This document shows, piece by piece, positions 1,702 to 20,174 of a stretch of DNA of 64,000 nt. Origin of the DNA: Thermodesulfobacteriota bacterium. GTDB lineage: Bacteria > Desulfobacterota_D > UBA1144 > Nemesobacterales > UBA2774. The translations under genes were made by a program, and so were the position numbers. The notes under the pieces are model-generated. The model was not told the DNA's origin. It searched no databases and saw nothing but the letters and a program-made list of their open reading frames with translations. Each line of letters begins with the position of its first letter. Position 1 is the stretch's first letter. The stretch is taken from positions 1 to 64,000 of the forward strand of contig OY729416.1 of NCBI GenBank assembly GCA_963422265.1, written 5' to 3'.

Positions 1702-1790
1702 TTGTTATAGATTCATTTCAGCGCAAGTTTCGCATATCCGTGTTCACACTTTATGAAAATACAAAATATCATTAACGAGGACGAAAATCA

Positions 1791-2099
1791 ATGCAAAAGC
1801 GTTTTAACGAGGGGATATTTAGGATTAGACATTTTCTGCCCACTGACCTAAGGGAGGAAATCAGCGCCGAAAAGGTCGGCGAGCTTTTAAACCTGTTGTC
1901 TGAGACCGAGAGGGAAGTGTTAGAAAAGCGTTTTGGATTGGATGATGGGAAACAGCGGGCACAGGCGCGCGGTGCCGTCCATTCTTTTGCCCAAATTGGC
2001 GCCTCTATGGGGTTCAGCAGGCAGCGTGCTTATCAGTTGTGTAGCCGAGCAATTCATAAAATTATTCTGCACGTAAAAAAACCTCTTGACATATCCTGA
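1791..2099 (+). CDS. Stand-alone sigma-70 region 4 HTH protein (putative regulator of the virion operon)
   Basis: LSETEREVLEKRFGL...SFAQIGASMGFSRQRAYQL matches the sigma r4 pattern; 102 aa, no region 2. Confidence 0.75.
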   Translation: MQKRFNEGIFRIRHFLPTDLREEISAEKVGELLNLLSETEREVLEKRFGLDDGKQRAQARGAVHSFAQIGASMGFSRQRAYQLCSRAIHKIILHVKKPLDIS

Positions 2100-2114
2100 T
2101 TAGTGTGCTACTTT
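2086..2114 (+). promoter_or_regulatory. Putative sigma70 promoter upstream of the portal gene
   Basis: Perfect TTGACA (2086-2091), 17-nt spacer, TG-n extended -10 and TACTTT (2109-2114). Confidence 0.55.
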
Positions 2115-2216
2115 ACATTTTAACGGCGTAGCTTTATTCAACTTATGAATAAAGGGCATATAGCGCTAAACTTCCATTCATCAATAAACCCATAGTCGGT
2201 AAACCATAAAGAAAAT

Positions 2217-3644
2217 ATGAGGCATTTGCTAGAACGTATTGCGCGTCTCTTCGCGGACGGGAAGGGTGCGTCCTCGCAGGAGCCTCGTTCTATAATGGAG
2301 GTTGCCGACCTATCTACGCAGGAGGGATCAGGGTGGAACGCGCACGGCGGACGCCAAGCTGATATAGATACAGGCATTGCCCTAGAGTCAGACGAGGCTT
2401 ATCTATCGCGACTGCGCGAATCTGCCAATCGGGCATATAGGCGTAATCCACACGCTCATGGCATAGTTGAAAATCTGACGAATTTTATTGTGGGTAAGGG
2501 CGCCGAGCTTGTTCTCTCAGCAACTTTGTCGGATGCCGAGCAAGCGCAGGTCAGGGAAGAATGGGGCAGGTTCAAGCGTGCCAACAAATGGCGCAGGGCG
2601 CAGCAGGAAATTGTCAGGCGGGCTATTAGGGACGGTGAGTGTTTTTTAAGATTCACAATAGATCGTGGCGATTGTCTTTCTTTTCACTTCCTTGAACCGG
2701 ATTGGATAACCTCGCTAAGCCCCGATATTTCACACGGCATTGAAACCGATCCCAATGACGTCGGTCAAGTAAAGTCCTACAGGCTTGTGCCTCCGCTTTC
2801 CTGCTCAAATAATGCCTCAGCAAATTTGCCACTAGCTCAAGCAGGCTCTTTTCCCAATGCCTCGACCCAGCGCGAAGTTGTCCTCTCGCCTAAAGAGGTT
2901 CAGCACATCAGGTTGAACGTTGATTCTAACGTCAAGCGTGGCCGCTCTTACCTAGAGCCAGTTCTAAGGGATTTAGAGGATTTGGCGCAATTTCGCAGAT
3001 ACCGTACGACGCTGAACAAGGCGCGCACGGCGGTTGTAATGGTGCGCAAGGTGGCGGGAGCTGGATCTCAAGGGCGCCGCCTCTCCGCCCAAGCTGGTAT
3101 GGAACCACAGCGGGCGCCGGGCATACCAGGAACAACGGGGAGGAGCTTAAAGCCTCCTAAAGCCGGCACCGTTTATACAATAGACAAAGAGTCGGAGGTG
3201 GAATTCAAGTCACCCAATCTTGGCGCAAGCGAAGCGGCACATGATGGGCGAATGCTGACGCTTGCAATCGCCGCCGGTGTGGGGTTGCCAGAATTCGTTC
3301 TCTCGGCTGACGCTTCTAATAACAACTTTGCTTCGGTTAAGCAGGCGACCCTGACCCTTATCAAGCTGACTGAGGATATGCATGCGTTCTTTGGAGAGGA
3401 GTTCTGTGAAATCTTTGACAGAGTAATAGCCCAAGCCAAGCTACAGGGACGCCTTAGGCAAGATTTGGACGTGTCGTGTGATTTTGAGTTTCCAGCCTTT
3501 GACATCCGCGATCTCAGCCAAGACGCACATACCTTCGCAATCCTTAGGGCGGAGGGCGTGGTCTCGAAAGCCTCTATGGCTGCGCGGTTCGGATACGACT
3601 ATGAGGAGGAAATAAAGAAGATGAAGAGGGAGGAAACGCTATGA
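2217..3644 (+). CDS. Phage portal protein (lambda-family-like)
   Basis: LRESANRAYRRNPHAHGIV, RRAIRDGECF, KRGRSYL and IAAGVGLPEFVLSADASNNNFAS motifs; first gene of the head module. Confidence 0.85.
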   Translation: MRHLLERIARLFADGKGASSQEPRSIMEVADLSTQEGSGWNAHGGRQADIDTGIALESDEAYLSRLRESANRAYRRNPHAHGIVENLTNFIVGKGAELVLSATLSDAEQAQVREEWGRFKRANKWRRAQQEIVRRAIRDGECFLRFTIDRGDCLSFHFLEPDWITSLSPDISHGIETDPNDVGQVKSYRLVPPLSCSNNASANLPLAQAGSFPNASTQREVVLSPKEVQHIRLNVDSNVKRGRSYLEPVLRDLEDLAQFRRYRTTLNKARTAVVMVRKVAGAGSQGRRLSAQAGMEPQRAPGIPGTTGRSLKPPKAGTVYTIDKESEVEFKSPNLGASEAAHDGRMLTLAIAAGVGLPEFVLSADASNNNFASVKQATLTLIKLTEDMHAFFGEEFCEIFDRVIAQAKLQGRLRQDLDVSCDFEFPAFDIRDLSQDAHTFAILRAEGVVSKASMAARFGYDYEEEIKKMKREETL

Positions 3645-4774
3645 AGCGGATAAGAGAGAACCGCCTAAGGGGCGAGATATTCGAAGAAGCCAAGTTTGAC
3701 GATGAAAATCTGATTATCCGAAATGCCTCTTTGCTGGGAGCAGAGAGCTTAAACGGCTATGCCTACACGGAAAGGGCGCTTGAAGATGCGGCTAGGATGC
3801 TTGAAGGCGCCCCTCAGTTTCTTGATCACGGATCGATGCTGAATACGGGAAGGGGCGTTATGGATTCGTTCTCGCGGGTGCGTAGCGTCCGCTACGATAG
3901 GCGGGCGCATAAGTTGTTTGGGGATATGGAGCTTGTAGATACCCCATTGATTCGCAACGAGGTATTTCCAAGAATGAAACAGTTCGCGGATAGGTTTGGC
4001 AACTCTATCGTCGCCGAGGGAGAGTTTGAAAGGATGGAAGACGGAAGTTTCGTTACGAGCCTGACCGCTGTGCATTCCTGTGACTTAGTATCTGACCCTG
4101 CGACTACCAAGGGGTTGTTTGAGCAGATAGCACCCAAGGACGAAAGAGCATGTAGCCCTGTTCGAAGATCAGGAGCTTGGAATTATGATAACAAACGTGT
4201 CCCCAACGCCGATCGGGGAAAGGAGGAAGAAAAGATGAAGATAGAAGACGTTAGGAGTAGTTATATACCCGATGCTGATCGGGGGGCTGATCGGGGGGCT
4301 GATCGGGGGAAAGAGCAATTAAGTGATGATACTGGGCAGTCCCTGAACTTGCCTCAGGTTCAGAGTGATGGTATTGCCAAATATCCGCCTGAGGAGCTTG
4401 CGAACGTAGCAGTTTCAGAGGAGATTGAGGCTATGAAGGCTGAGAATTCCAGGCTTAGAAAGGAGAAGAATAGGCTTGAGGAAGAAAAAAGTCTGGCTGA
4501 GAAGAAGACGTTTCTTGAAAGGGAGATTAGCAGAGCAGACCTGCCTGAATCCATCATAACGGAGAGTTGGAGGAAAATGTTATTGGAAAAAAGGCAGGAC
4601 GAGATTAAACGGGCTATCTCCGAGATAGCAGAAGCTATTAAGCCCATTATCGGACTTGCTCGGAAAAACGTGCGGAGCTTTGAATCGCTTAATTTCGAGA
4701 AATCGCTTATGGATGGGTCGGATGCGCGCTTGGACGTGCACATAGGGGATTTTTACAAGAGAGTCTTTAGGTGA
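3641..4774 (+). CDS. Prohead protease / scaffold fusion
   Basis: ATGA overlap with portal; SLNGYAY, FLDH, V.SCDLVSDPATTKGLFE protease-like N-terminus; coiled-coil C-terminus. Confidence 0.75.
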   Translation: MKRIRENRLRGEIFEEAKFDDENLIIRNASLLGAESLNGYAYTERALEDAARMLEGAPQFLDHGSMLNTGRGVMDSFSRVRSVRYDRRAHKLFGDMELVDTPLIRNEVFPRMKQFADRFGNSIVAEGEFERMEDGSFVTSLTAVHSCDLVSDPATTKGLFEQIAPKDERACSPVRRSGAWNYDNKRVPNADRGKEEEKMKIEDVRSSYIPDADRGADRGADRGKEQLSDDTGQSLNLPQVQSDGIAKYPPEELANVAVSEEIEAMKAENSRLRKEKNRLEEEKSLAEKKTFLEREISRADLPESIITESWRKMLLEKRQDEIKRAISEIAEAIKPIIGLARKNVRSFESLNFEKSLMDGSDARLDVHIGDFYKRVFR

Positions 4775-4784
4775 TGTGTGACGA

Positions 4785-5890
4785 TCGTCATTCCTGCATA
4801 AGCATGTCCCTGCATGTATTAAGCAGGGACAGGAATCTAGTGGGGAATGGGAGGCAAGGGATTTTGTTCCCCGACCCTCCCTGGTTGGTGAGCCTGCCGA
4901 AGGGCGATGTCCTGAACTTGTTGAAGGGGGGATGATTGATCTTCCTTGATGTTCTATCAAATCCCCCTGTGTCCCCCTTTTCTAAAGGGGGAGAAGAAGA
5001 GGATGGGTAACCACAAGGGTTATCCCTACGAGATGATGGAGAGGGTGGGAATCCAGAGGGTATGGGGAGATAAGGGAGGGTCGATCTTCCCTGATGTTCT
5101 ATCAAATCCCCCTATATCCCCCTTTTCTAAAGGGGGAATGTGTGAGGAATGTATTCGTTCCTAGATGTCCTATCAAATCTCCCTCTCCCAGAGGGAAAGG
5201 GGGAAAAGACAAGATTTCTCGGTTGTGTTTTGTCATTAGGCAAGCTCAGGAGTTAGAAGGGATATTTCCCTCCTTTCGTAAAGGAGGGTTAGGGTGGATT
5301 TTGTTTTTGTTTGTAGGGGTGGTGCTAGCGATGTCCTGAACTTGTTGAAGAGGGGGGATGATTGATCTTCCCTGATGTTCTATCAAATCCCCCTGTATCC
5401 CCCTTTTCTAAAGGGGGAGAAGAAGAGGATGGGTAACCACAAGGGTTATCCCTACGAGATGATGGAGAGGGTGGGAATCCAGAGGGTATGGGGAGATAAG
5501 GGAGGGTCGATCTTCCCTGATGTTCTATCAAATCCCCCTATATCCCCCTTTTCTAAAGGGGGAATGTGTGAGGAATGTGTTCGTTCCTAGATGTCCTATC
5601 AAATCTCCCTCTCCCAGAGGGAAAGGGGGAAAAGACAAGATTTCTCGGTTGTGTTTTGTCATTAGGCAAGCTCAGGAGTTAGAAGGGATATTTCCCTCCT
5701 TTCGTAAAGGAGGGTTAGGGTGGATTTTCTTTTTGTTTGTAGGGGCGGTGCTAGCGATGTCCTGAACTTGTTGGAGGGGGGATGATTGATCTTCCTTGAT
5801 GTTCTATCAAATCCCCCTGTGTCCCCCTTTTCTAAAGGGGGAGAAGAAGAGGATGGGTAACTACAAGGGTTATCCCTACGAGATGATATA
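4785..5890. repeat. Mosaic palindromic repeat block containing about 2.3 tandem copies of a ~425-bp unit
   Basis: Unit starts GCGATGTCCTGAACTTGTTG at 4904, 5328 and 5754; near-identical copies built of several hairpin families. Confidence 0.95.
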
Positions 5891-5904
5891 AGGAGGAAAC
5901 GTAA

Positions 5905-6378
5905 ATGAGTGAGATGAGATACAGGAGAGATGCGGGAGAGGCGAGCGTAGCGGTCAATTCCGAGACTATAATAGAAATAGGAGATTTGATCTGGTTGGAT
6001 ACAGATGACACCAAGCCAGCATCTAATTTCTCATGGACAACAGACGCGGCTACGACGCAAGCAAATTTTAAGGAGAAATTCCTCGGCGTAGCGATGCAAG
6101 CAAGCAGGGACGGTGATACCAACCCTATTCGGTTCATTTATGATGGCGTTTTTGAGATGGATGCCTCTTCGGCTAGCTATGAACTCGGTTCTATGGTAGC
6201 CCCAGCTAAGTCTAGTGGAGAAAAGCTGCTCAATCAGCAGGTTGCCGCTTCGTCAGCGGCTGCGGGGGCAATCGGTATTGTGCACAAGGCGGCTCCGAGT
6301 AGTTCTACGAGGGTACTGGTTCGAATACGCTCGCAGGTTATGGATGGTATAAGGATTGGGGAAGACGCTACCAGTTAG
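5905..6378 (+). CDS. Head decoration / capsid cement protein (DUF2190-like)
   Basis: AGGAGG SD; IEIGDLIW, FLGVAMQ and GVFEM motifs; immediately upstream of the capsid gene. Confidence 0.7.
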   Translation: MSEMRYRRDAGEASVAVNSETIIEIGDLIWLDTDDTKPASNFSWTTDAATTQANFKEKFLGVAMQASRDGDTNPIRFIYDGVFEMDASSASYELGSMVAPAKSSGEKLLNQQVAASSAAAGAIGIVHKAAPSSSTRVLVRIRSQVMDGIRIGEDATS

Positions 6379-6416
6379 ATGGACATATGACAAACAGAAA
6401 GTAGGAGGAGAGATAA

Positions 6417-7610
6417 ATGAAGGTAAATGAGATAAGGAATTTGCTTAGGCAGCTAAGTGTAGGTAGCGATAAGATCACCTATGAAGCTAAGAAGGCTTTT
6501 GTGGAGAATTATCAAGAGCCTTTGTTAAAAGGGCAGAGGCTGCCTAATGGCGAGTTAGTAAAGACTAGATCCGAAGAGTGGTCTATACGCGGTTTGTGGG
6601 AGGCTCTGGTCGGACCTGTTGACGAGACCTTGCCCATAGATCGCTATTTTTCAGAAACTACTCACAGGCAGTATTTCGAGGCGGCTTTGGACTCTACCAT
6701 GTTTCCAAAAGCTATGGGCAACCTGATGATAAACAAGGTTATAGAGGGTTATAGCTCGCCTATGTTTATTGGGGATCAACTGGTTGAAAATATGCCCTCG
6801 AACCTCAAGTCGGAAACAATTGTCGGTTTTACAGGCTCGCAGGAGCTCAAGGAGGTAGCCGAAGGAGGGCAGTATGAAGAATCCAGCATAAGCGAGAAAT
6901 ACGTTACGACCGAGACGTCTAAGAAGGGGCGTATTATCTCACTTACGGAAGAGGACATCAGGTTTGACCGCACGGGTCAGATTCTTATGCGCGCCAGAAT
7001 GCTAGGCGAGGAAGCGGGGAGAGACAAAGAGGAGACTATACTTAGGGGCGTTACAGGCGTGAATACCAAAGTCTATAAGCCCAATGGAACTGCGAAAAGC
7101 CTTTACTCGTCTGGACACAAGAATCTAAAGGAAAGCAACGGTTTAACTGATTGGACGCAGATTGACGCTGCGCTCCTTCAACACGTCGAGATCAAGGACA
7201 ACAGGCAGGGCGGAAAAGGCAAGCCTGTTATGTGGATGCCCAGCATTATTCTCACAGGTCCAGCCAACGCTACGACAGCTAAGAGAATTGTGGGGGCTAC
7301 CGAGATCAGATCGCACGACGGCTCGGCTTCAAAAAATCCCTCTGATGGCAACACCGTTGTTTCGGCTAATCCATTTGGAAACTTCACCGTGCTGTCTAGC
7401 TCGCTATGGCCTGCGGCTTCTACCGACTGGTTCATTGGCGATTTTCGCAGGCAGTTTATATGGCAGGAGATTTGGCCTATCAGGGTATTTTCCCAAGGAG
7501 CTAACGCTGAGTCGGCATTTGAGGCGGACGTGATTAGCAGGTTTAAGGTGAGCTACTACGGTGGAATAGCTGCTGTTGATCATAGATACGTAATTAAGAA
7601 TACGGCTTAA
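6417..7610 (+). CDS. Major capsid protein (HK97 fold, Mu gpT-like)
   Basis: 397 aa; LKEVAEGGQYEE, KKGRIISLTEEDIRFDRTGQI, DWFIGDFRRQF and YYGGIAAVDHRY; position in operon. Confidence 0.85.
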   Translation: MKVNEIRNLLRQLSVGSDKITYEAKKAFVENYQEPLLKGQRLPNGELVKTRSEEWSIRGLWEALVGPVDETLPIDRYFSETTHRQYFEAALDSTMFPKAMGNLMINKVIEGYSSPMFIGDQLVENMPSNLKSETIVGFTGSQELKEVAEGGQYEESSISEKYVTTETSKKGRIISLTEEDIRFDRTGQILMRARMLGEEAGRDKEETILRGVTGVNTKVYKPNGTAKSLYSSGHKNLKESNGLTDWTQIDAALLQHVEIKDNRQGGKGKPVMWMPSIILTGPANATTAKRIVGATEIRSHDGSASKNPSDGNTVVSANPFGNFTVLSSSLWPAASTDWFIGDFRRQFIWQEIWPIRVFSQGANAESAFEADVISRFKVSYYGGIAAVDHRYVIKNTA

Positions 7611-7617
7611 ATTAAAA

Positions 7618-7974
7618 ATGGCAGAAATCTATACTTATGATGAAGCCTTCCCAACGGATAAGGATAAGGTGCGCGCTCTTATCCCCGACAAAGCTGATCC
7701 TCAAAATAAGATGCTGTCTGATCAGCAAATAGCTCTCGCTATAGAAATGCACGACGACAATCTCAGGCTGGCAACCGCTGAATGCTGTGAGATGATTGCG
7801 TCTAAGCTTGCGCCTGACGCCGTCTCTTATTCCATCGGTGGAGTTGGAGGAGACGTGAACGCTTCGCTAGGTCCGGGCTACTTTCTGAGACGAGCGAAGC
7901 AATTGAGAGAGGACGAAGTGAAACACGTCCCTTTCTTCAGTGAAGGTGCTTTTGATTATTGTGCCGATCATTAG
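7618..7974 (+). CDS. Head-tail adaptor (connector) protein
   Basis: DKVRALIPD...LSDQQI...ATAECCEMIASK pattern, size and position after capsid. Confidence 0.65.
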   Translation: MAEIYTYDEAFPTDKDKVRALIPDKADPQNKMLSDQQIALAIEMHDDNLRLATAECCEMIASKLAPDAVSYSIGGVGGDVNASLGPGYFLRRAKQLREDEVKHVPFFSEGAFDYCADH

Positions 7975-8004
7975 TAGGGAGAGGTTTGTGTTTCCCCCTG
8001 TCTA

Positions 8005-8688: not shown

Positions 8689-8751
8689 AACAAAGGAACT
8701 GGATTCCAGCTCGGGGGCGGGAATGACGGGTCGAGGCAGGGAGGATTTTCA

Positions 8752-9093: not shown

Positions 9094-9104
9094 GGCAATG
9101 CGGT

Positions 9105-9593: not shown

Positions 9594-9785
9594 GGATGTA
9601 TGAACTGTGATTCTTAGGATGGAGTGAGGGGCTGTGATGGAAAGGATAAAGGACAAATCCCCCTGTATCCCCCTTTTCTAAAGGGGGATAGATAAGGGAG
9701 AAGCCCTCACTCTGTGTCCCTCTCCCAGGGGGAGGAGACAGAGGAAGGACGAGAAGACATAAAAGACAAGAGGAGGATATAGAAG

Positions 9786-11131: not shown

Positions 11132-11178
11132 AGCTCAAGTCTTCCATAAAACGATAAAGAAAGCAACGGGGGTGGCAC

Positions 11179-14100
11179 ATGTCTTTTGATCTCCGGGGTT
11201 TGACTATGCAGGTATCGGTGGATAAGGCTGGGTTGAAGCAGGCTGAGCGGGCGGTAGTTCGTATAGGCAAGTCCGCTAATGATATGGGTAAGGCATTTGC
11301 GCGTGAGAACCGTAAAATTCAGCGACAAGTTGGGCTAACTACTCACGAAATGCGCGGACTGGGGAACGAGGTAAAGCGGACGAGCAGTGCTATGGGCAGG
11401 CTAGGAGAATCACTCGGGTCGCCGTTCAAGTATGGTTTGCCTCAGATGCAGGCGTATAGCGCTGCGCTACGCGGGCTGTCCAGTGCAGTGCGCGGGGCGG
11501 TTGGGGGAGCGGTGCAGTTTGAGAAGAGCATGAGCAAGATTACTGGGCTCGTTGGCGTAGCGCGGGAGCAGGTACAGGCTTGGGAGGGTGAACTAGAGAG
11601 GATGTCGGTTTCCTCAGGACAGTCCCTAGCAAAGGTGTCCGAAGGGCTTTTCTTCGTAACCTCGGCGGGTTTGCGCGGGGCGACCGCGATAGAGACGCTG
11701 GAGGCAGCTACGAAGGCGGCGGCTGTGGGGCTTGGTGACGTGGGAACGATCGCAAACGCAACTACTAGTGCGGTGAACGCTTATGGTGCAGAGGCGCTTA
11801 GCGGGTCACGGGCTACGGACGTCTTGGTGGCGACTGTGCGAGAGGGTAAATTGCAGGCTGATGAGCTGGCGGGCTCGATCGGGACGGTGATACCTATCGC
11901 ATCGAAGATGAACATAGAATTCCATGAGGTAGGTGCGGCTATGGCGCTGATGAGCAGGACGGGGACGGACGCGGCGACTGGGACGACCCAATTACGTCAG
12001 ATATTGAACTCGCTAATAAGCCCCAGCGCAGAGGCGGAGAAGGCTATGAAGGGTCTGGGCGTTTCGGCACAGGGATTGCGAGAAACCTTTGGTGGCGGGC
12101 TTCTGGATGGATTGCTAGAGCTCAAACGGCTTACTGAAGAATACGGTGAGGAGACGCTAGCCGAGCTGTTCCCTAATATCCAGGCGTTATCGGGTTTATT
12201 TGATCTACTCGGAGGAGACATTGAGGAGACCAAGCGTCTTTTTGGAAGCGTTCGCGACTCCGCGGGAGACACATCTCGCGCTTTCAAAAACATGGAGGGA
12301 GACGTCGGACTTCTGTGGGATCAATTAGATCAGCACCTGAACGTGGCGCTGACTAATCTAGGAAAAACAATCCTGCCTGTGTTGAACAAGGGACTAGAGG
12401 GGATGATCTCCTTTTTTGATGGGAAGCCCGACGAACGGGCAGCCGATTTTGCGGCGTCTCTCGCTTTTTTGGGCTCGCAGGCGTCTAAAGCCAATCCTGA
12501 GATTGCTGAGTTCAATCGTATAGCGTCTGAGTCCACACTCCCGCAAGGGCTCAAAGACCTTTGGGCAGTGGTGGCTACGCCTCCGGACACGTCAGCGTGG
12601 GTGCAAGCGGCAGAAAAGCTTGCGGACGCTAGAAAGAAAATGCGGGAGGAGATAGAAAAAATACGCTCTTTGAAGCAGATTGCGGAAGACCCGAGCGCAA
12701 CAATGGTCGGGGGAGATGTCGCTCTAAGCGAGCCGGCACCCGCAGCTTCTCCGACCTCTCCTAATATCCCATCGGCACCGTCTATCAGCCCAGCGGAGTT
12801 GGAGCGAATCGCGGAGCTGAACGCCAGCCTGAGCGAGCAGAAAATACACCTAGAAGAACAATTCAGGGCGTTGAGCATGTCGGCGGCGGAGCTCATAGAG
12901 TTTGAGCGCACGTCCAATATTGCGAAGGGGGCGAGTGAGGAACTGGCAAATGCGGTAGCTAAGCAGAAGCTAGCGATGCTGGGGGCAAAAGAAGAGGCGG
13001 CTGAGCTGAAGGGCGTCCTGTCTGAGCTAGAAAAAATACAAAAAGCAAACGAGCGGGCGAATGCCGATGCCGACCCGGTGGGGAGGCTGAAGAAGCAGGA
13101 GCAGGCGGAGAGGTTGGCTTTGCGTAAGGCATTGAATGCTGGGTTGATTTCCCGTGAGGAATGGGTGAAACAGCTATCGTGGGTGGAGAAGCGCTATGCG
13201 GATATGATAAAGGACGCAACGGACAAAGGGATGAAAGACTCTGCGCGGGACTCTCGCGTGCAGCGCGTTCTATCGGATGGATTTGCGGAGAGTATGCGAG
13301 GGGCTTTTATGCGCATAGGTAAGGACGGGGGGATAAAGAAGACAATCTTGGGGTTATTCGGCGGGATAGGGCAAGCTATGCGGTCTGGGATGTTGGATCA
13401 GGTTAGCATTGGGGCGAGTGGATATTTTGAGAGGTTTTCAAAGAGCGCCGAAACGGGATTTAACGATAGTTTCAAGCATCTTAAAACCCTCTTTAAGAAG
13501 GATATAGCTCCAATGTTTAAGGATGCGTTCAAGGGCTTTGGCGACAAGTTTAAGGGTGTAGGCAAGTTTTTCCAGCGCGTGCCTGTAGCGTCTATCGCAA
13601 CATCTGCTATGGGCGTATATCAAGGGATAAAGTCAGGGAATAAGCTAGGAAGCGCTCTAAGTGGTATGGGTCTCGGGGCGTCGATTGGGACGGCGATAGT
13701 TCCTGGGATAGGGACAGCGATCGGGGCGGTTGTAGGCGCAGTAGGTGGGTTCGTAGCGAGTCTATTTGGCGGAAAGAAAAAGAAGGAGAAGCAGATCGCC
13801 TTTCATATAGAAGAGATGGTAAGTGGACGTCTAACGCAGGCGGGGGATATGATAGACAAGGGACTGTCCGATGCGGTCTATGCTTGGGATCCTAAGCGGG
13901 CGAGTGGATGGGGAGAAGGTGGGAAGCACGCACGAGCTACAGAGAAGACGTTGCGTAACACGTGGACTGCGGTAATAGAGGAAATTGAAGCTATAATGAC
14001 TGCCCTTCCTGTAGATGTATTCTCCCGTGTGGGAGACGTTAGAAGAGCAACGCTGACTCGCACTGGGAGACTTCCTGGGGATGAAGGGCAGAGGGAGTCG

Positions 14101-16863
14101 GAAAGGACTATGTTGAGCTTTGATAGGGACAATAAGGATTGGAAAAAGATAATGGCGGATTGGGAACGCTTTCTTAAGGGATATTCGGGGAATATCCTTA
14201 CGTCTCTTGAGAACTACTGGGTGGACTCACTAACAGCGATGGGGTTTGGGGTTGCGAAGAGTCTTGCTAGCCAAATTGTAGGGGGTTTGGGTTTTGAGAG
14301 AGTAGATAAGAGCGTTTATACGCGAAAAAACGAAGCGAAAACGAAGGGTCTTGCTAGCCAATTTGGACTCTCTGGCACGCAGGCTTGGGTAAATGAGCAA
14401 TTAGCATCTATTGACGCTCTTGAGGGAGAGGCGAGGGCGGCGGAGGCTAAGAAGTTCTTAGAGAATGTAAATACCGTAGTAGAGGCTTTCAATATACTAG
14501 AGGGGAATACGGGGATTAAGGGGGCAATTGCGCAGATAACTAACCTTACTGCGAGTATAGGCGGTATGGCTACCCTGCAAGGCGGTTTCCCCGTGCTAAA
14601 AGAGATACACGATAGGATGAGGGAGTTATTTGAATTAGGTGACCATAAGAACCTTAGGAAGCTAATAGAACTCAGGAAGGCATTACTAGACGTTCAGAGC
14701 CAGATGATTGGCACGGTGTCGTCTATGTTGACCACGATGTCATCAATAAGCGATAGGCTAGTAGAGCTGGGCTCATCGCCTATAGACACGAGGCAGTATG
14801 CGATGCAGTTGCTTGAGCATATACAGGGGGTGCTCAATCAGCCAGAACTAGACCCTGACAAAAGAATACAATTCCTAGAGCAATTCAAGCAGGTTCTGGA
14901 CTTTATGTATCAGGAAGAGCGGAAGATAATAGAGGCGAGGAAGGAAGAGCTTGAAGGGTTCAGAGACGTGCTTGAAAGCATACAAGACGTATCTGACTCG
15001 CTGAAGAATACGAAGCTCAAGATACAAACGGACTTTGAGGGGGTGCGGACGAAGCCGGAGCAGATTGGTCTTATAAAGGCGCAGATTAAGTTTCTGGAAG
15101 ATAATCTGCCGAGTTTAGACACGGAGCATCAAAAGGAGAAGGGGAAAGAATTGGAGAGCTTGTATCAGCGTTTGTATCAAAGGACGTTAGAGGCGTTCGG
15201 GACTCAAAGCTCTGAGCTTTATACGACTTATGAGCAAGTGATGAAGGGGCTGTCTGGATTATCTGACTACTTTAACGTAGAGGATGAGTTGCTACGTGTA
15301 ACTAAACTGATTGAAGAGCATACTAGGAACACGGGAATAAATACGCTACAGACTAAGAGCCAGATGATTGAGGCGGTAGCTGCATCTGGATTAACGAAGG
15401 ATAAGGTGGTTGAAGTAACGAAGGCAGTGCAAGCGTTAGACTTCTCTACCATAGACATAAAGTCAGCTCAGTTCACGAACTTACTAAATAAGATTGGTTT
15501 AACCACCGCTGAGGTGACGAAGGTGATGACTGCCGTTAATGCTGTAGCTGCTCAAGAGAGACTCACCACTGCAGAGGTGGTAAAGGCAGTCAGTGCGGCA
15601 GGGCTAACTAAGCAAGCGATAGACGCAGTAAAGAGTGTGATTGCGACGCCAGCCATAAACAGTAGGCGGACACAAGGTGAACTAGAGTGGTTCGCAAATG
15701 TATTCAAGAGAAGCATCCCCAAGTTTTGGGATAAGTATATACAAGCACATTTCATAGAATATAAGAGACAAGGCGGAAGCTTGGCAGATATGCTGACGTT
15801 TATACACGGAACGCCAGCACCTGCTGGTTTAGATGATGCGACCTGGGGACAAAGACAATCAAGATATGACAAATGGCTACGAACTAATTGGCTAGACTTA
15901 CTATCTATGAGTTACCAGCCTCCACTTGCTTACGACTCAGATTGGAAGATATGGAATCCCGCTCCGGGGGGTATGACAGATGCGCAACTTACGCAGTTGT
16001 TAGAAGCTGCAGGCTTAACCACGGCGCAGATAAAGGCGGTAAAGTCCGCGGTAGATAGCAGTAAAACATCTATAAAGGGAGTGTTGACAGAGAACAAAGA
16101 TTTAATAGATGATGTAAAGACAGAGACAAAGGGAACTAAGGAGGCCTCTTTAAGTATTCAGAATAATACGTTTCAAGGACAACAAGATTTACTACGTCTT
16201 TACAAAGACTTCGGTCAAAAGTATTTCCTAACCGTAGTAACCGCAATAGATGCTATGCATAAGACGCTAGCCAGTGTAGGAGACAAGCTAGTTCCTCCCC
16301 CTACCCCGATTCCTAAACCTGTAGAGCGACCTACTGCAGATGATAATGCAGCATTAAAAAATGCGTTAATAGCGGGCAGTAGATCAGGAGATTGGTATGT
16401 TAATACGATAAAACCTGCACTAGCTCTATTCAAAAGAATTGGTGGGACAATGCAACAAGCAATAGATATTGTAAATTCTGTGCCACGTCCCACAGGAACT
16501 AAATGGGCTGATGACTGGTTTCACCGTCTAGGTTCGCAGGCTAGTATGCGTGCGTTTGTTACTAGGAATTGGGATAGTTTTCATACAGGCGGTTTAGTGC
16601 CTAAGACGGGGACGTATCAGCTTTTGAGTGGGGAGCGGGTACTGAATACGGAGCAGGCGCGGAGATATGGCGGCGCAGACGCGGAAGCGGGGAGCGTGAA
16701 CGTGGGAGGGATACAGGTAACTATTCACGCTGAGGGGGCGCAGAGTGAACCGCAGGCAGTTGCCGATAGCATAGAGGATATGTTGGTGCGGACGTTCGAG
16801 GACAGTGGACGCGTAAGGAAGGCGGTAAGGAGAACGATGCAAGGGGAGTTTGTGAGGCAGTGA
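11179..16863 (+). CDS. Phage tail tape measure protein (TP901-family core)
   Basis: 1894 aa; FEKSMSKI, FFVTSAG, DVLVATVREGKLQADELAGSIG and AATGTTQLRQIL motifs; Gly-zipper TM segment; C-terminal FHTGGLV...GERVLN. Confidence 0.93.
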   Translation: MSFDLRGLTMQVSVDKAGLKQAERAVVRIGKSANDMGKAFARENRKIQRQVGLTTHEMRGLGNEVKRTSSAMGRLGESLGSPFKYGLPQMQAYSAALRGLSSAVRGAVGGAVQFEKSMSKITGLVGVAREQVQAWEGELERMSVSSGQSLAKVSEGLFFVTSAGLRGATAIETLEAATKAAAVGLGDVGTIANATTSAVNAYGAEALSGSRATDVLVATVREGKLQADELAGSIGTVIPIASKMNIEFHEVGAAMALMSRTGTDAATGTTQLRQILNSLISPSAEAEKAMKGLGVSAQGLRETFGGGLLDGLLELKRLTEEYGEETLAELFPNIQALSGLFDLLGGDIEETKRLFGSVRDSAGDTSRAFKNMEGDVGLLWDQLDQHLNVALTNLGKTILPVLNKGLEGMISFFDGKPDERAADFAASLAFLGSQASKANPEIAEFNRIASESTLPQGLKDLWAVVATPPDTSAWVQAAEKLADARKKMREEIEKIRSLKQIAEDPSATMVGGDVALSEPAPAASPTSPNIPSAPSISPAELERIAELNASLSEQKIHLEEQFRALSMSAAELIEFERTSNIAKGASEELANAVAKQKLAMLGAKEEAAELKGVLSELEKIQKANERANADADPVGRLKKQEQAERLALRKALNAGLISREEWVKQLSWVEKRYADMIKDATDKGMKDSARDSRVQRVLSDGFAESMRGAFMRIGKDGGIKKTILGLFGGIGQAMRSGMLDQVSIGASGYFERFSKSAETGFNDSFKHLKTLFKKDIAPMFKDAFKGFGDKFKGVGKFFQRVPVASIATSAMGVYQGIKSGNKLGSALSGMGLGASIGTAIVPGIGTAIGAVVGAVGGFVASLFGGKKKKEKQIAFHIEEMVSGRLTQAGDMIDKGLSDAVYAWDPKRASGWGEGGKHARATEKTLRNTWTAVIEEIEAIMTALPVDVFSRVGDVRRATLTRTGRLPGDEGQRESERTMLSFDRDNKDWKKIMADWERFLKGYSGNILTSLENYWVDSLTAMGFGVAKSLASQIVGGLGFERVDKSVYTRKNEAKTKGLASQFGLSGTQAWVNEQLASIDALEGEARAAEAKKFLENVNTVVEAFNILEGNTGIKGAIAQITNLTASIGGMATLQGGFPVLKEIHDRMRELFELGDHKNLRKLIELRKALLDVQSQMIGTVSSMLTTMSSISDRLVELGSSPIDTRQYAMQLLEHIQGVLNQPELDPDKRIQFLEQFKQVLDFMYQEERKIIEARKEELEGFRDVLESIQDVSDSLKNTKLKIQTDFEGVRTKPEQIGLIKAQIKFLEDNLPSLDTEHQKEKGKELESLYQRLYQRTLEAFGTQSSELYTTYEQVMKGLSGLSDYFNVEDELLRVTKLIEEHTRNTGINTLQTKSQMIEAVAASGLTKDKVVEVTKAVQALDFSTIDIKSAQFTNLLNKIGLTTAEVTKVMTAVNAVAAQERLTTAEVVKAVSAAGLTKQAIDAVKSVIATPAINSRRTQGELEWFANVFKRSIPKFWDKYIQAHFIEYKRQGGSLADMLTFIHGTPAPAGLDDATWGQRQSRYDKWLRTNWLDLLSMSYQPPLAYDSDWKIWNPAPGGMTDAQLTQLLEAAGLTTAQIKAVKSAVDSSKTSIKGVLTENKDLIDDVKTETKGTKEASLSIQNNTFQGQQDLLRLYKDFGQKYFLTVVTAIDAMHKTLASVGDKLVPPPTPIPKPVERPTADDNAALKNALIAGSRSGDWYVNTIKPALALFKRIGGTMQQAIDIVNSVPRPTGTKWADDWFHRLGSQASMRAFVTRNWDSFHTGGLVPKTGTYQLLSGERVLNTEQARRYGGADAEAGSVNVGGIQVTIHAEGAQSEPQAVADSIEDMLVRTFEDSGRVRKAVRRTMQGEFVRQ

Positions 16864-16954
16864 AGTGTCTGAACTGTGATTAGATCAAATCCCCCTGTAT
16901 CCCCCTTTGCTAAAGGGGGAGAAGATAAGGGATAGGCTTGGAGGGAAGGTAGAA

Positions 16955-17824
16955 ATGGCGCAGGTAAAGATAGCAAGAAGATTTATTCAGAACGTCAGCA
17001 TGTTTTTTGAAGCGACGCTGGACGGCTATCCATTCTCTAATGCCCTTGATATAACAGACCCAAACAAACAGGCGAGGTTGTGGAGTGATGACGCATCAAC
17101 CCTCGCCTCTTGCACAATCAAACTACCTGACGCCGTTACGCTTGATGATAACGAAGCAGCTCACTTCTATTTTGACCACTGTAATTTTAGACGAGTAGGA
17201 CTCAGCAGGCGTGGAACTAACATCGTTGGCTCGCCAATGAGACATGAATGGATGATTAGCGCCAACGTTGACCCTGCCGTTAATCCAAACATATACAGAG
17301 ACCCGGTTCAAGGCGTTTATAGGGGAGTTGTAACCCTGCCTAGGACTAATCAGGAATACTTTAGCATTGGAATCCACATGCCGAACAATACGAGCTATCC
17401 GCAGTCTCCTGTGGACGGAGAAAGCTACTACCGCATAGGGTCACTGGCAATTATTAGGGATAACGACTTAATAGAGGTGGATGCGCAGTTAACGTATCCG
17501 TATCGCGTTAAGCTCCCCGATACGAACGTTGTGGAGACGCGTTTTGCTGATGGTGGTGTAAGACGAACCAAGATAGCGTCCATTACTCCGATGCGTTTTA
17601 GTCTTGGGGTAAATACTGGTGTGGAGCAGAACATCGCAGGGAACGGGGTAGAACAGTTGTTTGATTTGTTCAGGGACCCTACGGATATACTATACATAGA
17701 CTTGGGAATGGAGCCGTGGCAGAAGTATTTGGTGCGGCGGGTTGGGGAGTTACGGGCAGAGGTAGTATCGCCTAGGACGGGGACTGTGGACTTTGGGGAG
17801 ATGACCTTTGAGGTGGTGATATGA
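16955..17824 (+). CDS. Putative distal tail protein
   Basis: Follows the TMP; ATG 16955 after GGAGG-like SD (track start lies in a repeat); ends MTFEVVI as Dit-like proteins often do. Confidence 0.5.
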   Translation: MAQVKIARRFIQNVSMFFEATLDGYPFSNALDITDPNKQARLWSDDASTLASCTIKLPDAVTLDDNEAAHFYFDHCNFRRVGLSRRGTNIVGSPMRHEWMISANVDPAVNPNIYRDPVQGVYRGVVTLPRTNQEYFSIGIHMPNNTSYPQSPVDGESYYRIGSLAIIRDNDLIEVDAQLTYPYRVKLPDTNVVETRFADGGVRRTKIASITPMRFSLGVNTGVEQNIAGNGVEQLFDLFRDPTDILYIDLGMEPWQKYLVRRVGELRAEVVSPRTGTVDFGEMTFEVVI

Positions 17825-17960
17825 TGCTTTGCGCCCTCATCCTGTGTCCATCTCCCAGGGGGAGAGGGGGTCTGAACTGTGATTTGTGGGATGGAGTGAG
17901 GGACTGTGATGGAAAGGATAAGGAACAAATCCCCCTATATCCCCCTTTGCTAAAGGGGGA

Positions 17961-20024
17961 TTGTGTAGGGAGAATGAGAGGAGAAACGGGTTGTTATACT
18001 TGTGGGCGAATAGGCATATAGTGTGGGGAGACCACACGGGACTTCCAGTTGCTTGCGTAAAAATTGACAAGGCAAGCGCCCCTGAAAGCCCAGCGCTGGG
18101 AGAAATATATGAGAGGCGACTTGTTACCCTCCCTCAAATCCCAGAGCCTTCTACAGAGCACAGGGACGGCATAGTTGGGACTGGGAGCGTTACGCTCAGT
18201 GTTGATAATTCAGATGGTCTGCTCAATGGTAGAGACATTACGGGATGGAACGTCTCTATATCCTTGTTGGATGGTAAAGGAGTCTTAACCGCAAGGTTTG
18301 AGGGACGGATAGATGAATGGACTCTGGGTGGGATAAAGTGTGAACTTACGGTCAAGAGCCATGAGGCTATTGCACTGTCGGCTGAGCTTCCAAAACGGAC
18401 GTTGAATGATGTGATTGAAGCTGAAAAAAGCGCTGGACGAACAGACGGACTTATAAGCGAGAACCTGAGCAAGCCAATACCGATTGTTTTTGGTAGGGTG
18501 GTTAAGATGCCTCTATTGCTTATCCGCTCTGATGACGTGAACAGGGAATATCATTACATAGTTGGTGAGGGGCAAGGGCTGAACGGTAAGAGCTTTAAGG
18601 GCGTCTATACTGTGTATAGGGATAAGCTGGCACTTGATTCTATTGAGGGAGTAGTAGGGGGCGGCGCACGGAACGCCTCTCTCACTTTAGAGGACGGAGA
18701 TAGGCGGACTGAGGAATGGTATAAAAACTGGTGGGTTGAAATCACCTTGGGGACGGGAGCGGGACAGATACGAAGGGTAGAGTCATACAATTCCGCATCA
18801 AACGAGGTGGCTGTGGCTGATGAATGGAATCCTGCTCCTGACGCTGCGAGTGAATACAGGCTGAGGGAATGGCGGTTTTACGATGGGGGTCAGACGAATT
18901 ACTATCCCGGCTATGCGTGGATACGGCTCAAGAAGCGATTTGGGGATAAAGGGGTGCAGTTTTACGCTGACGTAAGTGGCTTGCAGGACGAGGTGAACCC
19001 GATGAACGCCGTTAAAAGTATTCTGCAAAGTAGCACATGGGGGTTGGGGGAGAAGGCAGTGTTTCATGAGGATGGGGTGCGGTCGTCTCCGTTAAGGTGT
19101 GAGGGGGCGCTCGTTACCAAGACGTCGGCTAGGGACGTAATTAGCGAGATACTTAGGATGGGGGGGATGATGATTATGCGCAACGCTGGACGCCTTAGCA
19201 TCGTGGGTGATGAAGACAGGGGTGTGGGAATGGGGGAGAGTTTGGAGATAAGCGATCTTGTGGAGAGAAGCCCTCAAGTCAAATACGCTAGGATAGAAGA
19301 CAGGGTTAGGAGTCTTAAAATCAGGTATAGAAAGGATCACTCGGAGAACGATGCGTATTGCTGCGAGTTGACACGGCAATCTAGCCCCGAAGGGGTGGAT
19401 GAAACACTTGATGCGAGATGGATATATGAGCACGAGACGGCGGATAGGGTATTGGACTATATGCGCAAGAAGATAGCCTTAGCGAGCAGGAAATTGGCGG
19501 TTGCTATTGGGAAGGAACAATCTGAGGGGGAGGTAGGGAGCGTTTGGAAAATCTCTATACCGCATCTAGGGATAGAGGAAGAGGCATGGGAAGTGACGGA
19601 CTCTACTCACGTACTGGCGGGGGAGAGGACAGTATCGTTTATTCCGTATTCTGACGCTCCGTATAATTACGAGCCTATTACGGATGAGGGAGGGACGTTG
19701 CCTGATGACGTGGACAGCGTTGAGCCAGACTATGAGAACACACCGCCCGACCCGGTAGCGAACTTAACCGTCTCTATCATTGCCAACTACGCTAATCTGC
19801 AGTGGAACTCGCCCGAAGATAACTACGGCGGGGTGGTGGTGAGTGTGAAGGAGAGTGATGAGGACGTATCGGAGTATCGTGAGGAGGTTACCGTGAAGGG
19901 AAACTCGGCGAGGGTGCGTGGGCTGACGTCGGGGAAGAGCTACGACTTTATGGTTATATCACTTAACCAAACAGGAGAGATTAAAGGACTGCCTGTGTTT
20001 AGAATGGGTAATACTGTTGGTTAA
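17961..20024 (+). CDS. Tail tip / baseplate hub protein with C-terminal FN3 domain
   Basis: LSVDNSDG, FEGRIDEW, KPIPIVFGRV and TLGTGAGQIRRV motifs; C-terminal PPDPVANL...W...GLTSGKSYDF FN3; alternative start TTG 17991 with GAGGAG SD. Confidence 0.75.
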   Translation: MCRENERRNGLLYLWANRHIVWGDHTGLPVACVKIDKASAPESPALGEIYERRLVTLPQIPEPSTEHRDGIVGTGSVTLSVDNSDGLLNGRDITGWNVSISLLDGKGVLTARFEGRIDEWTLGGIKCELTVKSHEAIALSAELPKRTLNDVIEAEKSAGRTDGLISENLSKPIPIVFGRVVKMPLLLIRSDDVNREYHYIVGEGQGLNGKSFKGVYTVYRDKLALDSIEGVVGGGARNASLTLEDGDRRTEEWYKNWWVEITLGTGAGQIRRVESYNSASNEVAVADEWNPAPDAASEYRLREWRFYDGGQTNYYPGYAWIRLKKRFGDKGVQFYADVSGLQDEVNPMNAVKSILQSSTWGLGEKAVFHEDGVRSSPLRCEGALVTKTSARDVISEILRMGGMMIMRNAGRLSIVGDEDRGVGMGESLEISDLVERSPQVKYARIEDRVRSLKIRYRKDHSENDAYCCELTRQSSPEGVDETLDARWIYEHETADRVLDYMRKKIALASRKLAVAIGKEQSEGEVGSVWKISIPHLGIEEEAWEVTDSTHVLAGERTVSFIPYSDAPYNYEPITDEGGTLPDDVDSVEPDYENTPPDPVANLTVSIIANYANLQWNSPEDNYGGVVVSVKESDEDVSEYREEVTVKGNSARVRGLTSGKSYDFMVISLNQTGEIKGLPVFRMGNTVG

Positions 20025-20173: not shown

Positions 20174-20174
20174 A

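Follow-up and report, generated by a model that had tools for sequence, protein, structure and literature searches.

A probable rearranged and defective siphovirus prophage with constrained structural genes in a repeat-rich part of a bacterial chromosome

Results

A siphovirus-type head-tail cluster adjoins rnc

The window analysed here comprises the first 64,000 positions of one 1.78-Mb contig, and that single contig is the genome. At positions 1791–20024, on the plus strand, profile searches identified 18 kb of phage head-tail genes in phage order, and all listed structural ORFs are open, the 5.7-kb tape measure gene included, as the preliminary description of this DNA had stated. The left junction is formed by the native host gene rnc (RNase III; 1006–1701, minus strand; PF14622, E 2e-35, plus dsrm), which lies outside the phage, is single copy in the genome and is 68–74% identical in 14/14 family relatives; a distance of 89 bp separates its start codon from the cluster, also as first described. 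The closest phage is an uncultured siphovirus, the linear IMG/VR contig IMGVR_UViG_3300015615_000131 (33,205 bp, CheckV 79%; hereafter the UViG), with which the cluster is collinear over 11 genes (small HTH, portal, protease, decoration, capsid, connector, terminator, chaperone and its −1 extension, tape measure, distal tail, J-like). Protein identities are 29–63%, with the capsid at 57% and the tape measure giving only a partial match of about 25%.

The structural block opens with a small HTH protein resembling sigma-70 region 4 (1791–2099; PF04545, E 1e-7), whose UViG homologue is placed between TerL and the portal gene; the coordinates of this and the following genes are on the plus strand. 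A portal protein of the lambda family (2217–3644; PF05136, E 9e-27; phrog_21, E 1e-34), 52% identical to the UViG portal, is followed by a prohead protease/scaffold candidate (3641–4774), which has only a weak profile match (phrog_15531, E 0.001) and 40% identity with the UViG gene at the same position. Then come a head decoration (cement) protein (5905–6378; PF09956, E 6e-6; phrog_122) and the major capsid protein (6417–7610; PF25209, E 1.4e-21), for which 122 relatives were found, the best non-self one being 59% identical. A small conserved phage protein (7618–7974; phrog_1732, E 1e-9), 63% identical to the UViG gene 3′ of the capsid gene, is a putative head-tail connector by virtue of its position.

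Beyond the connector position lies the end part of an ORF (8740–9093) without a Pfam family, whose translation combines a hydrophobic segment with a charged, helical one; it occupies the position of the HK97-gp10-like gene of the UViG, to whose 172-aa product it bears no similarity. The next ORF (9105–9593) was considered as the tail tube and rejected: a profile search matched it with T5 p142 and with the terminator of DT57C (E 0.001), and its AF2 model (pLDDT 86.5) gave T5 p142, the P74-26 neck and lambda gpU as top Foldseek matches, indicating a tail terminator. A G-like tail assembly chaperone (9786–10334), 39% identical to the UViG gene preceding the tape measure, matches TAC families in the Atlas at 0.89–0.90, a lead only. 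The G frame contains a T run (T TTT TTG) followed by a −1 frame extension, the T part (run and extension together 10247–10780), whose −1 ORF (10256–10780) is open and reads in frame through a repeat copy at 10381–10450; similarity to the UViG picks up again 3′ of the repeat, at residues 72–165. In the interval before the tape measure, a doubtful orphan ORF (10710–11189) yielded a low-confidence all-helix model (pLDDT 57), with no family match, no relatives and low Atlas recognition. The tape measure protein (1894 aa; 11179–16863; PF10145, E 9e-23; phrog_991, E 7e-54) is followed by a putative distal tail protein (16907–17824), so assigned from its position, which found no family match in profile searches and is 31% identical to the UViG gene 3′ of its tape measure. 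The last gene encodes a J-like tail tip/host specificity protein (17961–20024; PF13550, E 2e-5, plus fn3), 43% identical over residues 325–1000 of the 1253-aa UViG protein.

Host-lineage palindromic repeats occupy the gaps

Palindromic repeats occupy the six gaps in which they had initially been noticed, together with the seventh site inside the chaperone extension. A copy of family D2 lies past the 3′ end of rnc (938–1007), and the gap after the protease candidate holds 2.6 copies of a higher-order unit of ~426 bp with five palindrome cores (4785–5890; families D2–D6). A tandem array of about ten 72-bp units (8001–8733; D1/D2, spacing 72) precedes the ORF part at 8740–9093; further copies fill the terminator-chaperone gap (9592–9740; D7/D8/D2), the gap that follows the tape measure gene (16881–16950; D2) and the gap between the two tail-tip genes (17833–17990; D2/D7/D8), where the repeat overlaps the listed TTG start of the J-like ORF. 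All of these are on the plus strand, and one beyond the cluster end has the opposite orientation (20289–20324, minus strand; D3, loop AGA). That these repeats lie in frame inside coding regions, a point made in the preliminary description, is weak evidence, since three reading frames through the 72-bp unit, two forward and one reverse, are free of stops (ORFs 7940–8755 and 8113–9093 on the plus strand, 7971–8693 on the minus strand).

The palindrome core is not a chance pattern, with 127 copies genome-wide at ≤1 mismatch versus 0 for a reversed control pattern. It occurs in 7/24 family relatives (1–10 copies each) and in none of the loci fetched from other organisms, the UViG included, in agreement with the earlier assignment of the repeat to the host lineage. 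Its copies are not spread genome-wide: 121 of 144 regex matches fall in about 1.65 Mb–50 kb, across the contig ends, and 10-kb bins narrow most of them to about 1.66 Mb–33 kb. The presence of a host-lineage repeat at seven sites supports the view that the cluster has long been resident in this lineage.

Genes missing relative to the closest phage

The UViG has several features that the cluster lacks. Its TerL (Terminase_6N/6C) stands two genes ahead of the portal, and it further encodes Mu-F-like and HK97-gp10-like proteins. Its terminator and chaperone homologues are 7.4 kb apart, an interval that includes a tube gene (PF18906, E 4e-19), and at the place of the cluster's 17833–17990 repeat it has a Gp80-like fibre gene plus 324 extra N-terminal J-like residues. 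At the place of the tube gene the cluster has only repeat, the terminator-chaperone gap being 192 bp long and mostly repeat, and no HK97-gp10-like gene was found in the cluster. Relative to the UViG, the tail-tube and HK97-gp10-like genes are thus absent exactly at repeat sites, which suggests recombination between repeats as the cause of the deletions; and, contrary to what had been supposed, the head-tail genes are not intact, because the tail-tube gene is absent. The basis for calling genes missing is a single related phage, 31–63% identical at the protein level, which may by nature have a different gene set.

Genome-wide searches for a tail tube found none, whether with the PF18906 model, with the full set of 48 UViG ORFs in tblastn, or with the plus-strand ORFs of other fetched loci as queries. 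With the queries used, no other phage structural genes turned up elsewhere in the genome, and no lysozyme, amidase_2 or resolvase family genes were found genome-wide. Tyrosine integrases are present only at 492, 624 and 1166 kb, none of them within the element or nearby.

Early genes lie across the contig ends, beyond native host genes

According to the preliminary description, both flanks lacked a recognisable repressor, replication gene and terminase. This is contradicted by the last 12 kb of the contig, which hold all three; their apparent absence is an artefact of a window that opens at contig base 1. Across the contig ends, they lie 5–12 kb upstream of the cluster, with the repressor and initiator at 9–12 kb. 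Within locus L001 (contig positions 1,763,596–1,783,595), we identified a CI-like repressor (8361–9167, minus strand; HTH_3, E 8e-12; Peptidase_S24, E 3e-10), a DnaD-like helicase loader/replication initiator (10171–11343; phrog_1701, E 1e-24) and a TerL in two overlapping ORFs (12106–12954 and 12935–13732; phrog_38, E 1e-22 and 2e-10). The two ORFs match phrog_38 at 276–471 and 484–638, and the whole TerL of locus L104 matches 266–635 in one stretch, with Walker motifs that align with those of the first ORF. A 389,999-bp contig of a second independent assembly contains the same 265-aa TerL C-terminal ORF (263/265 residues identical), and TerL is split in both assemblies; in the genome analysed here it is 8 kb from the head genes. 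Of the three genes whose genome-wide search had been proposed as a check on the initial reading (TerL, tail tube and endolysin), TerL was recovered in split form and the other two were not found with the models and queries used. Three Pfam terminase models missed the TerL that PHROGs detected, and a highly divergent tube or lysin might escape detection in the same way.

One gene of the early half is UViG-like (L001:11582–12157, 33% identical), and the terminase is of a different type from that of the UViG. The complementary content of the early and late halves and this shared gene suggest that the two were once one phage.

The early half adjoins the 3′ side of a tRNA-Ala(GGC) (L001:15850–15925), which follows TerL after a 2-kb repeat array and which stands by hom in relatives too. 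The tRNA-Ala-hom-ntrC-rnc series is an ancestral host block, now located between the early genes and the structural genes, so that the interval from the terminase to the portal gene contains the 2-kb array as well as ancestral host genes spanning about 6 kb. A distance of a few kb on one contig separates hom from rnc in 13 relatives of the family, and two of the relatives (G002, G006) have the order tRNA-Ala, hom, histidine kinase, ntrC, rnc and further genes; here the histidine kinase is at 37065–38144, and the genes that come after rnc in those two are at 65–69 kb, inverted. Compared with relatives, gene order is scrambled in a zone of ~155 kb around the cluster, the zone to which 121 of the 144 repeat copies belong.

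These arrangements bear on whether the element might still be an active temperate phage of unusual layout, with tube, lysis and integration genes too divergent for detection and two terminase ORFs that cooperate. The recognised structural ORFs are all open in two assemblies, and the terminase missed by Pfam demonstrates that family searches have blind spots, both of which are in keeping with activity; however, terminase and portal gene are separated by ancestral host genes and a repeat array, the terminator-chaperone gap leaves no room for a tube gene, the sole unassigned ORF near the tape measure is the low-confidence all-helix model, and the element contains no integrase. We regard continued activity as quite unlikely. 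Judged from its sequence, the defective element is predicted to be unable, as it stands, to act as a phage or gene transfer agent (GTA), because it has no nearby integrase, its terminase is split and distant, and no tube, HK97-gp10-like or endolysin gene was found.

Structural genes are constrained among strains

In runs X1 and X5, which come from two further studies, contigs span the rnc-portal junction. In both, unique pieces of the cluster are covered about as deeply as the rnc piece; equal depth would speak against an excised, active form, contig depth being a rough guide. Conspecific strains have the same layout with open ORFs, and in the second assembly the ten structural counterparts looked up are all open (10/10), including a tape measure of 1946 aa. 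The strain contigs break at the same places, indicating that repeat positions are shared and that the compared copies come from one colonised ancestor.

Among the differences listed (40 of 453 strain differences, which supplied 20 phage-gene SNPs), 14/20 phage-gene SNPs are synonymous versus 28.6% expected (p 1.5e-4), much like those of rnc (11/15, likewise among the differences listed). In run X8 the tail half is 95–97% identical, and the five listed coding indel events (+3, +3, a −1/+1 pair, +3, −3) all keep the frame; its head genes are without cover at 90% likeness, with tail genes present, a lead only. Open ORFs in several strains together with mostly synonymous differences imply that the structural genes are still constrained, in keeping with the purifying selection that had been proposed.

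The differences are unevenly distributed. Run X1 has 0–1 differences in several 1–4-kb pieces, with clusters of 6 in 890 bases at 9744–10633 and 4 within 270 bases at 19109–19379; in the tape measure of the second assembly, about 840 nearly unchanged residues stand beside 300 with 178 changes, the changes being concentrated in residues 1500–1800; and in X5 rnc and the HTH gene are far more divergent than the portal gene. Patchiness like that of phage mosaics, as in the tape measure and in X5, would also be expected of a still-active phage. The X1 clusters, the tape measure and the X8 lead further accord with a neutral remnant, in which synonymous-rich differences were imported by recombination with related active phages and not selected in place. 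Such a remnant we consider unlikely, given that the shared repeat positions derive the compared copies from one colonised ancestor and that no active relative was found above 57% capsid identity.

The capsid was found in 0/40 relatives of other genera (24 from its family and 16 from its order). The synteny across relatives that had been expected of a host-maintained cluster was not seen among these 40, and the cluster is kept in place only among near-identical strains.

Discussion

Taken together, our data make it probable that the cluster is the late half of a siphovirus prophage that has become rearranged and defective and in which the structural genes remain under constraint. A temperate siphovirus that combined a head module of the lambda type with a tail resembling that of T5 would have integrated as a prophage, likely at the tRNA-Ala site, and would then have been broken up and partly deleted within a repeat-rich, heavily rearranged part of the chromosome, which would have left the early half by tRNA-Ala, across the native tRNA-Ala-hom-ntrC-rnc block from the structural genes. 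Host palindromic repeats would have spread into the intergenic gaps of the prophage, and recombination between them may have produced both the deletions and the splitting. The constraint may stem from residual use to the host, or from variation imported by recombination with related active phages. Some observations fit a defective prophage less well: the 14 synonymous versus 6 nonsynonymous listed SNPs (20 positions) are unlike a freely decaying remnant, the X8 indels keep the frame and the ten second-assembly counterparts are open, the missing-gene calls depend on one relative and could overlook divergent genes, and the two halves, joined here by their content, include a terminase of a type unlike that of the UViG.

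The same constraint, the rnc junction shared with contigs from two further studies, the ten open counterparts and the residence time implied by colonisation with host-lineage repeats would suit a particle maintained by the host, whether GTA-like, DNA-free or tail-less, whose missing parts are dispensable or supplied elsewhere. We nevertheless judge this very unlikely: there is no tube gene, lysozyme or amidase_2, the terminase is split in both assemblies, no other structural genes were found elsewhere with the queries used, the capsid was found in none of the 40 relatives of other genera, and a CI-type repressor and replication initiator are kept, as in an ordinary temperate prophage. The GTA-like reading put forward initially is rejected on these grounds. 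A related proposal, that a reduced-genome, host-associated Dadabacteria-like bacterium still uses a tube-less, terminase-impaired virion set under purifying selection, seems rather improbable; the set may then serve as head-like or tail-tip assemblies at the cell surface or in host contact, or be completed by a co-resident phage, and, if true, this would amount to a phage-derived system that has been domesticated in a way distinct from GTAs and tailocins.

On the reading as a defective prophage, the locus corrects an attractive GTA interpretation, the seemingly absent genes sitting beyond an arbitrary contig start, and offers a well-resolved case of prophage dismantling in a shrinking, repeat-ridden genome, with deletions at repeat copies, native genes inside the element and structural genes still constrained. 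Constraint in an uncultured lineage without described phages is, by itself, no sign of a new kind of particle.

Comparison with known systems

The likeness to clusters in Planctomycetota suggested in the preliminary description proved correct for the head module only. In a collection of species genomes, 123 stretches encode a capsid relative at about 36–44% identity, and 78 of the best 80 are planctomycetes by entry name, with Thalassoglobus, Maioricimonas and Alienimonas counted as such. The protease candidate was matched in 67 of these best 80 loci, the decoration protein in 61 and the portal in 28, whereas none of the window's tail genes match them; one locus that was checked has a PF03354 TerL beside the portal gene.

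The cluster of RcGTA in Rhodobacter capsulatus includes both terminase genes, small and large, each of them whole, and all the tail genes. It has neither a phage repressor nor genes for replication, and a large clade shares it at a conserved position. Since RcGTA itself has terminase genes, a lack of packaging genes would have been no sign of a GTA. Our cluster resembles RcGTA and the alphaproteobacterial GTA family in being a chromosomal head-tail cluster without an adjoining integrase, but differs in its split TerL, absent tube, CI-type repressor and initiator, and a capsid found in 0/40 relatives. F-type tailocins, which likewise keep siphovirus-type tail genes in the chromosome, have no head genes and require a tube; with portal, decoration and capsid genes present and no tube gene found, this assignment was rejected.

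The closest parallels are the cryptic lambdoid prophages Rac, DLP12 and Qin of enterobacteria, which also retain a partial gene set after deletion and rearrangement, beside a tRNA gene, have no working integration or packaging set, are absent from the more distant relatives sampled and show mostly synonymous change in their leftover genes. Here, in contrast, nearly the whole virion module survives, native host genes split the element, and a host palindromic repeat fills the gaps and has expanded into tandem arrays. The features shared with cryptic prophages also recall the pattern of 'pervasive domestication of defective prophages' reportedly described by Bobay et al. 2014. With the gene order and lineage of a known kind of phage, essential functions lost or broken, and patchily distributed DNA at a tRNA site, the element is of a kind already known, a defective prophage, and no new particle type is indicated.

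Gene content of the head-tail cluster

Phage genes in phage order run along the + strand from 1791 to 20024. The series opens with a small HTH protein (PF04545), which begins 89 bp from the start of rnc (1006–1701, − strand), and continues with a portal of the lambda family (PF05136, E 9e-27), a protease/scaffold candidate with a weak match only (phrog_15531, E 0.001), a decoration protein (PF09956) and the major capsid protein (PF25209, E 1.4e-21). Several small ORFs separate the capsid gene from a tape measure of 1894 aa (PF10145; phrog_991, E 7e-54), which is followed by a tail protein of 305 aa and a J-like protein (PF13550 and fn3). The closest relative that we found is an uncultured siphovirus contig of 33,205 bases from IMG/VR (IMGVR_UViG_3300015615_000131), with 57% identity in the capsid and synteny from the HTH gene through the J-like gene. 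GC3 is 0.47–0.59 in the cluster genes versus a host mean of 0.44; as two native genes also lie above that mean (rnc 0.53, hom 0.49), composition is uninformative on the age of the cluster. Rfam searches of the window and of L001, the last 20 kb of the contig (bases 1,763,596–1,783,595), returned 5S rRNA and tRNAs only.

The small ORFs between capsid and tape measure were analysed individually. A homologous-protein search with ORF 9105–9593 returned its own protein alone; a profile of 17 relatives matched the T5 p142 and DT57C terminators in the PDB (E 0.001), and the AlphaFold model (pLDDT 86.5) gave T5 p142, the P74-26 neck and lambda gpU as top Foldseek matches, which identifies this ORF as a tail terminator. 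ORF 9786–10334 is the tail assembly chaperone, with 39% identity to the gene preceding the tape measure in the closest phage and, as a lead, Atlas assignments to TAC families (0.89–0.90). Within its frame lies a T TTT TTG run (10247–10253), after which the −1 frame is open to 10780; chaperone frameshifting reportedly uses this kind of arrangement. A palindromic repeat at 10381–10450 is read through in the −1 frame, and likeness to the closest phage returns past it. ORF 10710–11189 is an orphan: its own protein alone was returned by the homologous-protein search, its single-sequence model is poor and all-helix (pLDDT 57, pTM 0.25), and Atlas gave no usable lead. The part of ORF 8113–9093 that lies past a repeat array comprises a hydrophobic segment together with a helical, charged one and has no family match.

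Downstream of the cluster, the translation of the − strand at about 20400–20590 looks by eye like a MutS N-terminus, in agreement with the preliminary description. An adhesin-like gene at 21889–25209 encodes fn3, He_PIG and partial autotransporter barrel domains, and a run of 15 C (21106–21120) lies in its broken 5′ part.

Early genes across the contig ends

The preliminary description had proposed a GTA-like, host-maintained virion operon, in part because neither flank seemed to carry a repressor, a replication gene or a terminase. That premise fails, because the window starts at base 1 of the contig and the early genes lie in its last 20 kb. The source genome, G000, is a single contig of 1,783,595 bases (99.4% complete), and across the contig ends we found all three functions: a CI-type repressor on the − strand (L001:8361–9167; HTH_3 E 8e-12, Peptidase_S24 E 3e-10), a DnaD-like helicase loader (L001:10171–11343; phrog_1701 E 1e-24) and a large terminase divided between two overlapping ORFs (L001:12106–12954 and 12935–13732; phrog_38). 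A further gene (L001:11582–12157) shares 33% identity with one that the closest phage carries ahead of its terminase genes.

The terminase ORFs align to phrog_38 positions 276–471 (E 1e-22) and 484–638 (E 2e-10), unlike an intact terminase of this family, which gives one continuous match; Walker motifs are present in the first ORF. A contig of 389,999 bp in a second assembly carries the 265-aa C-terminal ORF too, with 263 of 265 residues identical. As the second assembly carries the same ORF, assembly error is ruled out as the cause and the split is real. Whole-genome searches with three Pfam terminase models (PF03354, PF05876, PF03237) gave no match, so that absence judged by Pfam only is unsafe here, the terminase having been found later by PHROGs; an HMM of six planctomycete TerLs and tblastn of 23 candidate ORFs likewise found no terminase, missing the one detected by PHROGs, and none of these searches is counted towards an absence. 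Past the terminase come, in order, a repeat array (2 kb, 19 cores), tRNA-Ala(GGC), hom, an ntrC-type activator, small ORFs and rnc.

Rearrangement around rnc

About 6 kb of ancestral chromosome separates the early half from the late half, and the host genes within it are native. The rnc gene was present in 14 of 14 family relatives searched (68–74% identity), with hom a few kb off on the same contig in 13, and the source genome has one copy each of rnc, hom and the ntrC pieces. Two same-family relatives, G002 and G006, carry tRNA-Ala, hom, a PAS histidine kinase, ntrC and rnc in that order. In the source genome, hom (homoserine dehydrogenase) is in two frames (292 and 141 aa versus 433–451 aa in relatives) and the ntrC-type sigma-54 activator in three pieces (both in L001:16188–18987, G000 1,779,783–1,782,582); the PAS histidine kinase partner of ntrC is intact and has moved to 37065–38144 in the window.

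The genes that follow rnc in G002 and G006 lie inverted at 65–69 kb in G000, and other neighbours of rnc in those relatives are found at 1.70–1.72 Mb and 84–90 kb. Comparison of window coordinates 1,700–69,400 with G006 and G002 places the ancestral rnc neighbours 63.5 kb away, in inverted orientation. Because the ancestral gene order of the relatives continues past rnc elsewhere, the point where rnc meets the HTH gene is a rearrangement break rather than an attachment site. One or more inversions with a breakpoint between these two genes are implied, and the area around rnc has undergone several rounds of reshuffling.

The early half lies directly against tRNA-Ala, on its 3′ side. Placing the late half at the same tRNA would give the order repressor, replication, terminase, portal and onward to tail tip and att, and because this restored order is the usual one for a prophage, we infer that a single prophage may have integrated at tRNA-Ala and been broken up later.

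Genes missing relative to the closest phage

The closest phage carries a Terminase_6N/6C TerL two genes ahead of its portal, and a Mu-F-like gene. Between connector and terminator it has an HK97-gp10-like gene (weak, E 0.002) where the window has a 72-bp tandem array, and between terminator and chaperone a 7.4-kb block ending in a PF18906 tube gene (E 4e-19), in place of which the two ORFs of the window are 192 bp apart, with repeat making up most of the gap. It also encodes a Gp80-like fibre and 324 extra N-terminal residues on its J-like protein; the corresponding place in the window is repeat, within which the J-like ORF has its listed TTG start. The phage compared here is a distant relative: natural differences in gene content are possible, and these searches can miss divergent genes. 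No tail tube homolog was found in the genome with PF18906, or by tblastn using either all 48 ORFs of the closest phage or, from the other loci fetched, the ORFs on the + strand. The genome search found no resolvase, phage lysozyme or amidase_2 family genes, and tyrosine recombinases only at 492, 624 and 1166 kb. One of these, a 384-aa integrase (G000 623,413–625,058; L116:9904–11058), has no tRNA within 10 kb; two repeat cores lie just ahead of it, far from the main repeat zone.

Palindromic repeats

Repeat copies are built on CCCCCTTTnnnAAAGGGGG. They occupy all six intergenic gaps in which the preliminary description had placed them, as well as the seventh site at 10381–10450, and include a 72-bp tandem array (8001–8733) and a higher-order repeat of ~426 bp (4785–5890). 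Across the contig ends, 121 of 144 regex matches fall between about 1.65 Mb and 50 kb; in 10-kb bins, most lie from about 1.66 Mb to 33 kb, a zone of ~155 kb containing many tandem arrays of 70–72-bp period (for example 1,737,237–1,738,295 and L001:13776–15696). ORFs of at least 150 aa cover 63% of the DNA in this zone versus 84% elsewhere. Forward copies outnumber reverse ones by 101 to 26. All copies within the cluster are oriented with the genes, and orientation is mixed past 20 kb.

With at most one mismatch, the repeat core occurs 127 times in G000 versus 0–10 times in 24 family relatives, seven of which carry it, and it is absent from every fetched locus of another organism. This distribution marks it as a host-lineage element that expanded in G000 and colonised the cluster after the latter's arrival. 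No REP-associated transposase (Y1_Tnp) was found.

Variation between strains

Eleven run rows from eight studies contain at least part of the stretch. Contigs from runs X1 and X5, of two studies, bridge rnc and the portal, with breaks at the repeat sites predicted by the window layout, and the many contig joints and loose ends in the runs fall in repeat copies. In the second assembly, open counterparts exist for the HTH protein, portal (479 aa), decoration protein, capsid, connector, terminator, chaperone, tape measure (there 1946 aa) and the tail protein of 305 aa (there 322 aa), at 96–99% identity except for the tape measure (91.6%), in which 178 of the differing positions lie in residues 1600–1800. 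Run X8 matches the tail half at 95–97% identity; the five coding indel events among those listed all keep the frame, and the start of the J-like ORF, which derives from a repeat, carries an insertion of 2 bases. At 90% likeness X8 has no cover over 1551–4805 and 6108–7409, and cover in X6 is thin.

Among 40 listed of 453 differences, phage genes contain 20 SNPs (14 synonymous, 6 nonsynonymous), versus an expected synonymous share of 28.6% under the observed mutation spectrum (p 1.5e-4); rnc has 11 synonymous and 4 nonsynonymous SNPs. Such constraint on the structural genes goes against simple decay and appears real on the small sample available. It could stem either from some use that the host makes of these genes or from an import of variation out of active relatives. 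In runs X5 and X1 (900–20400), X5 differs from the window strain by ~2% in rnc and the HTH gene versus about 0.3–0.5% from the portal onward (15 differences in the 696 bases of rnc, five listed over the length of the portal). These uneven differences point to recombination, with a boundary that seems to lie near 2270.

Distribution and comparison with known systems

Among 41 genomes the capsid was found in G000 only; searches of 24 same-family and 16 same-order relatives, all 40 from other genera, did not find it. Its best non-self match in a large protein collection has 59% identity, and 123 stretches of a species-genome collection encode capsid relatives. By title, 78 of the best 80 of these are planctomycetes. 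The protease occurs in 67 of these 80 loci, decoration in 61 and portal in 28, and none matches the tail genes of the window. The likeness to a Planctomycetota cluster proposed in the preliminary description is borne out for the head module.

Among 39 planctomycete loci with full flanks (from L003–L082), protease and capsid occur in all 39, and about a dozen more families follow 3′ of the capsid in the same order in 14–24 loci. This gene set would represent a prophage lineage of very wide distribution or else a system retained by those bacteria. Among the titles listed on gene transfer agents and Planctomycetes, none deals with these loci, and among the titles listed on that subject and on Dadabacteria prophages none describes an element of the present kind.

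The element has ordinary temperate-phage features, namely a repressor, a replication initiator, a terminase and a tRNA site, and it lacks what a phage or a gene transfer agent needs: a whole terminase beside the head genes, a tube and lysis genes. On these grounds, and given that searches of 40 other-genus relatives did not find it, we consider it a probable rearranged defective prophage. Purifying selection on defective prophages is reportedly a known pattern, and the constraint seen here fits it.
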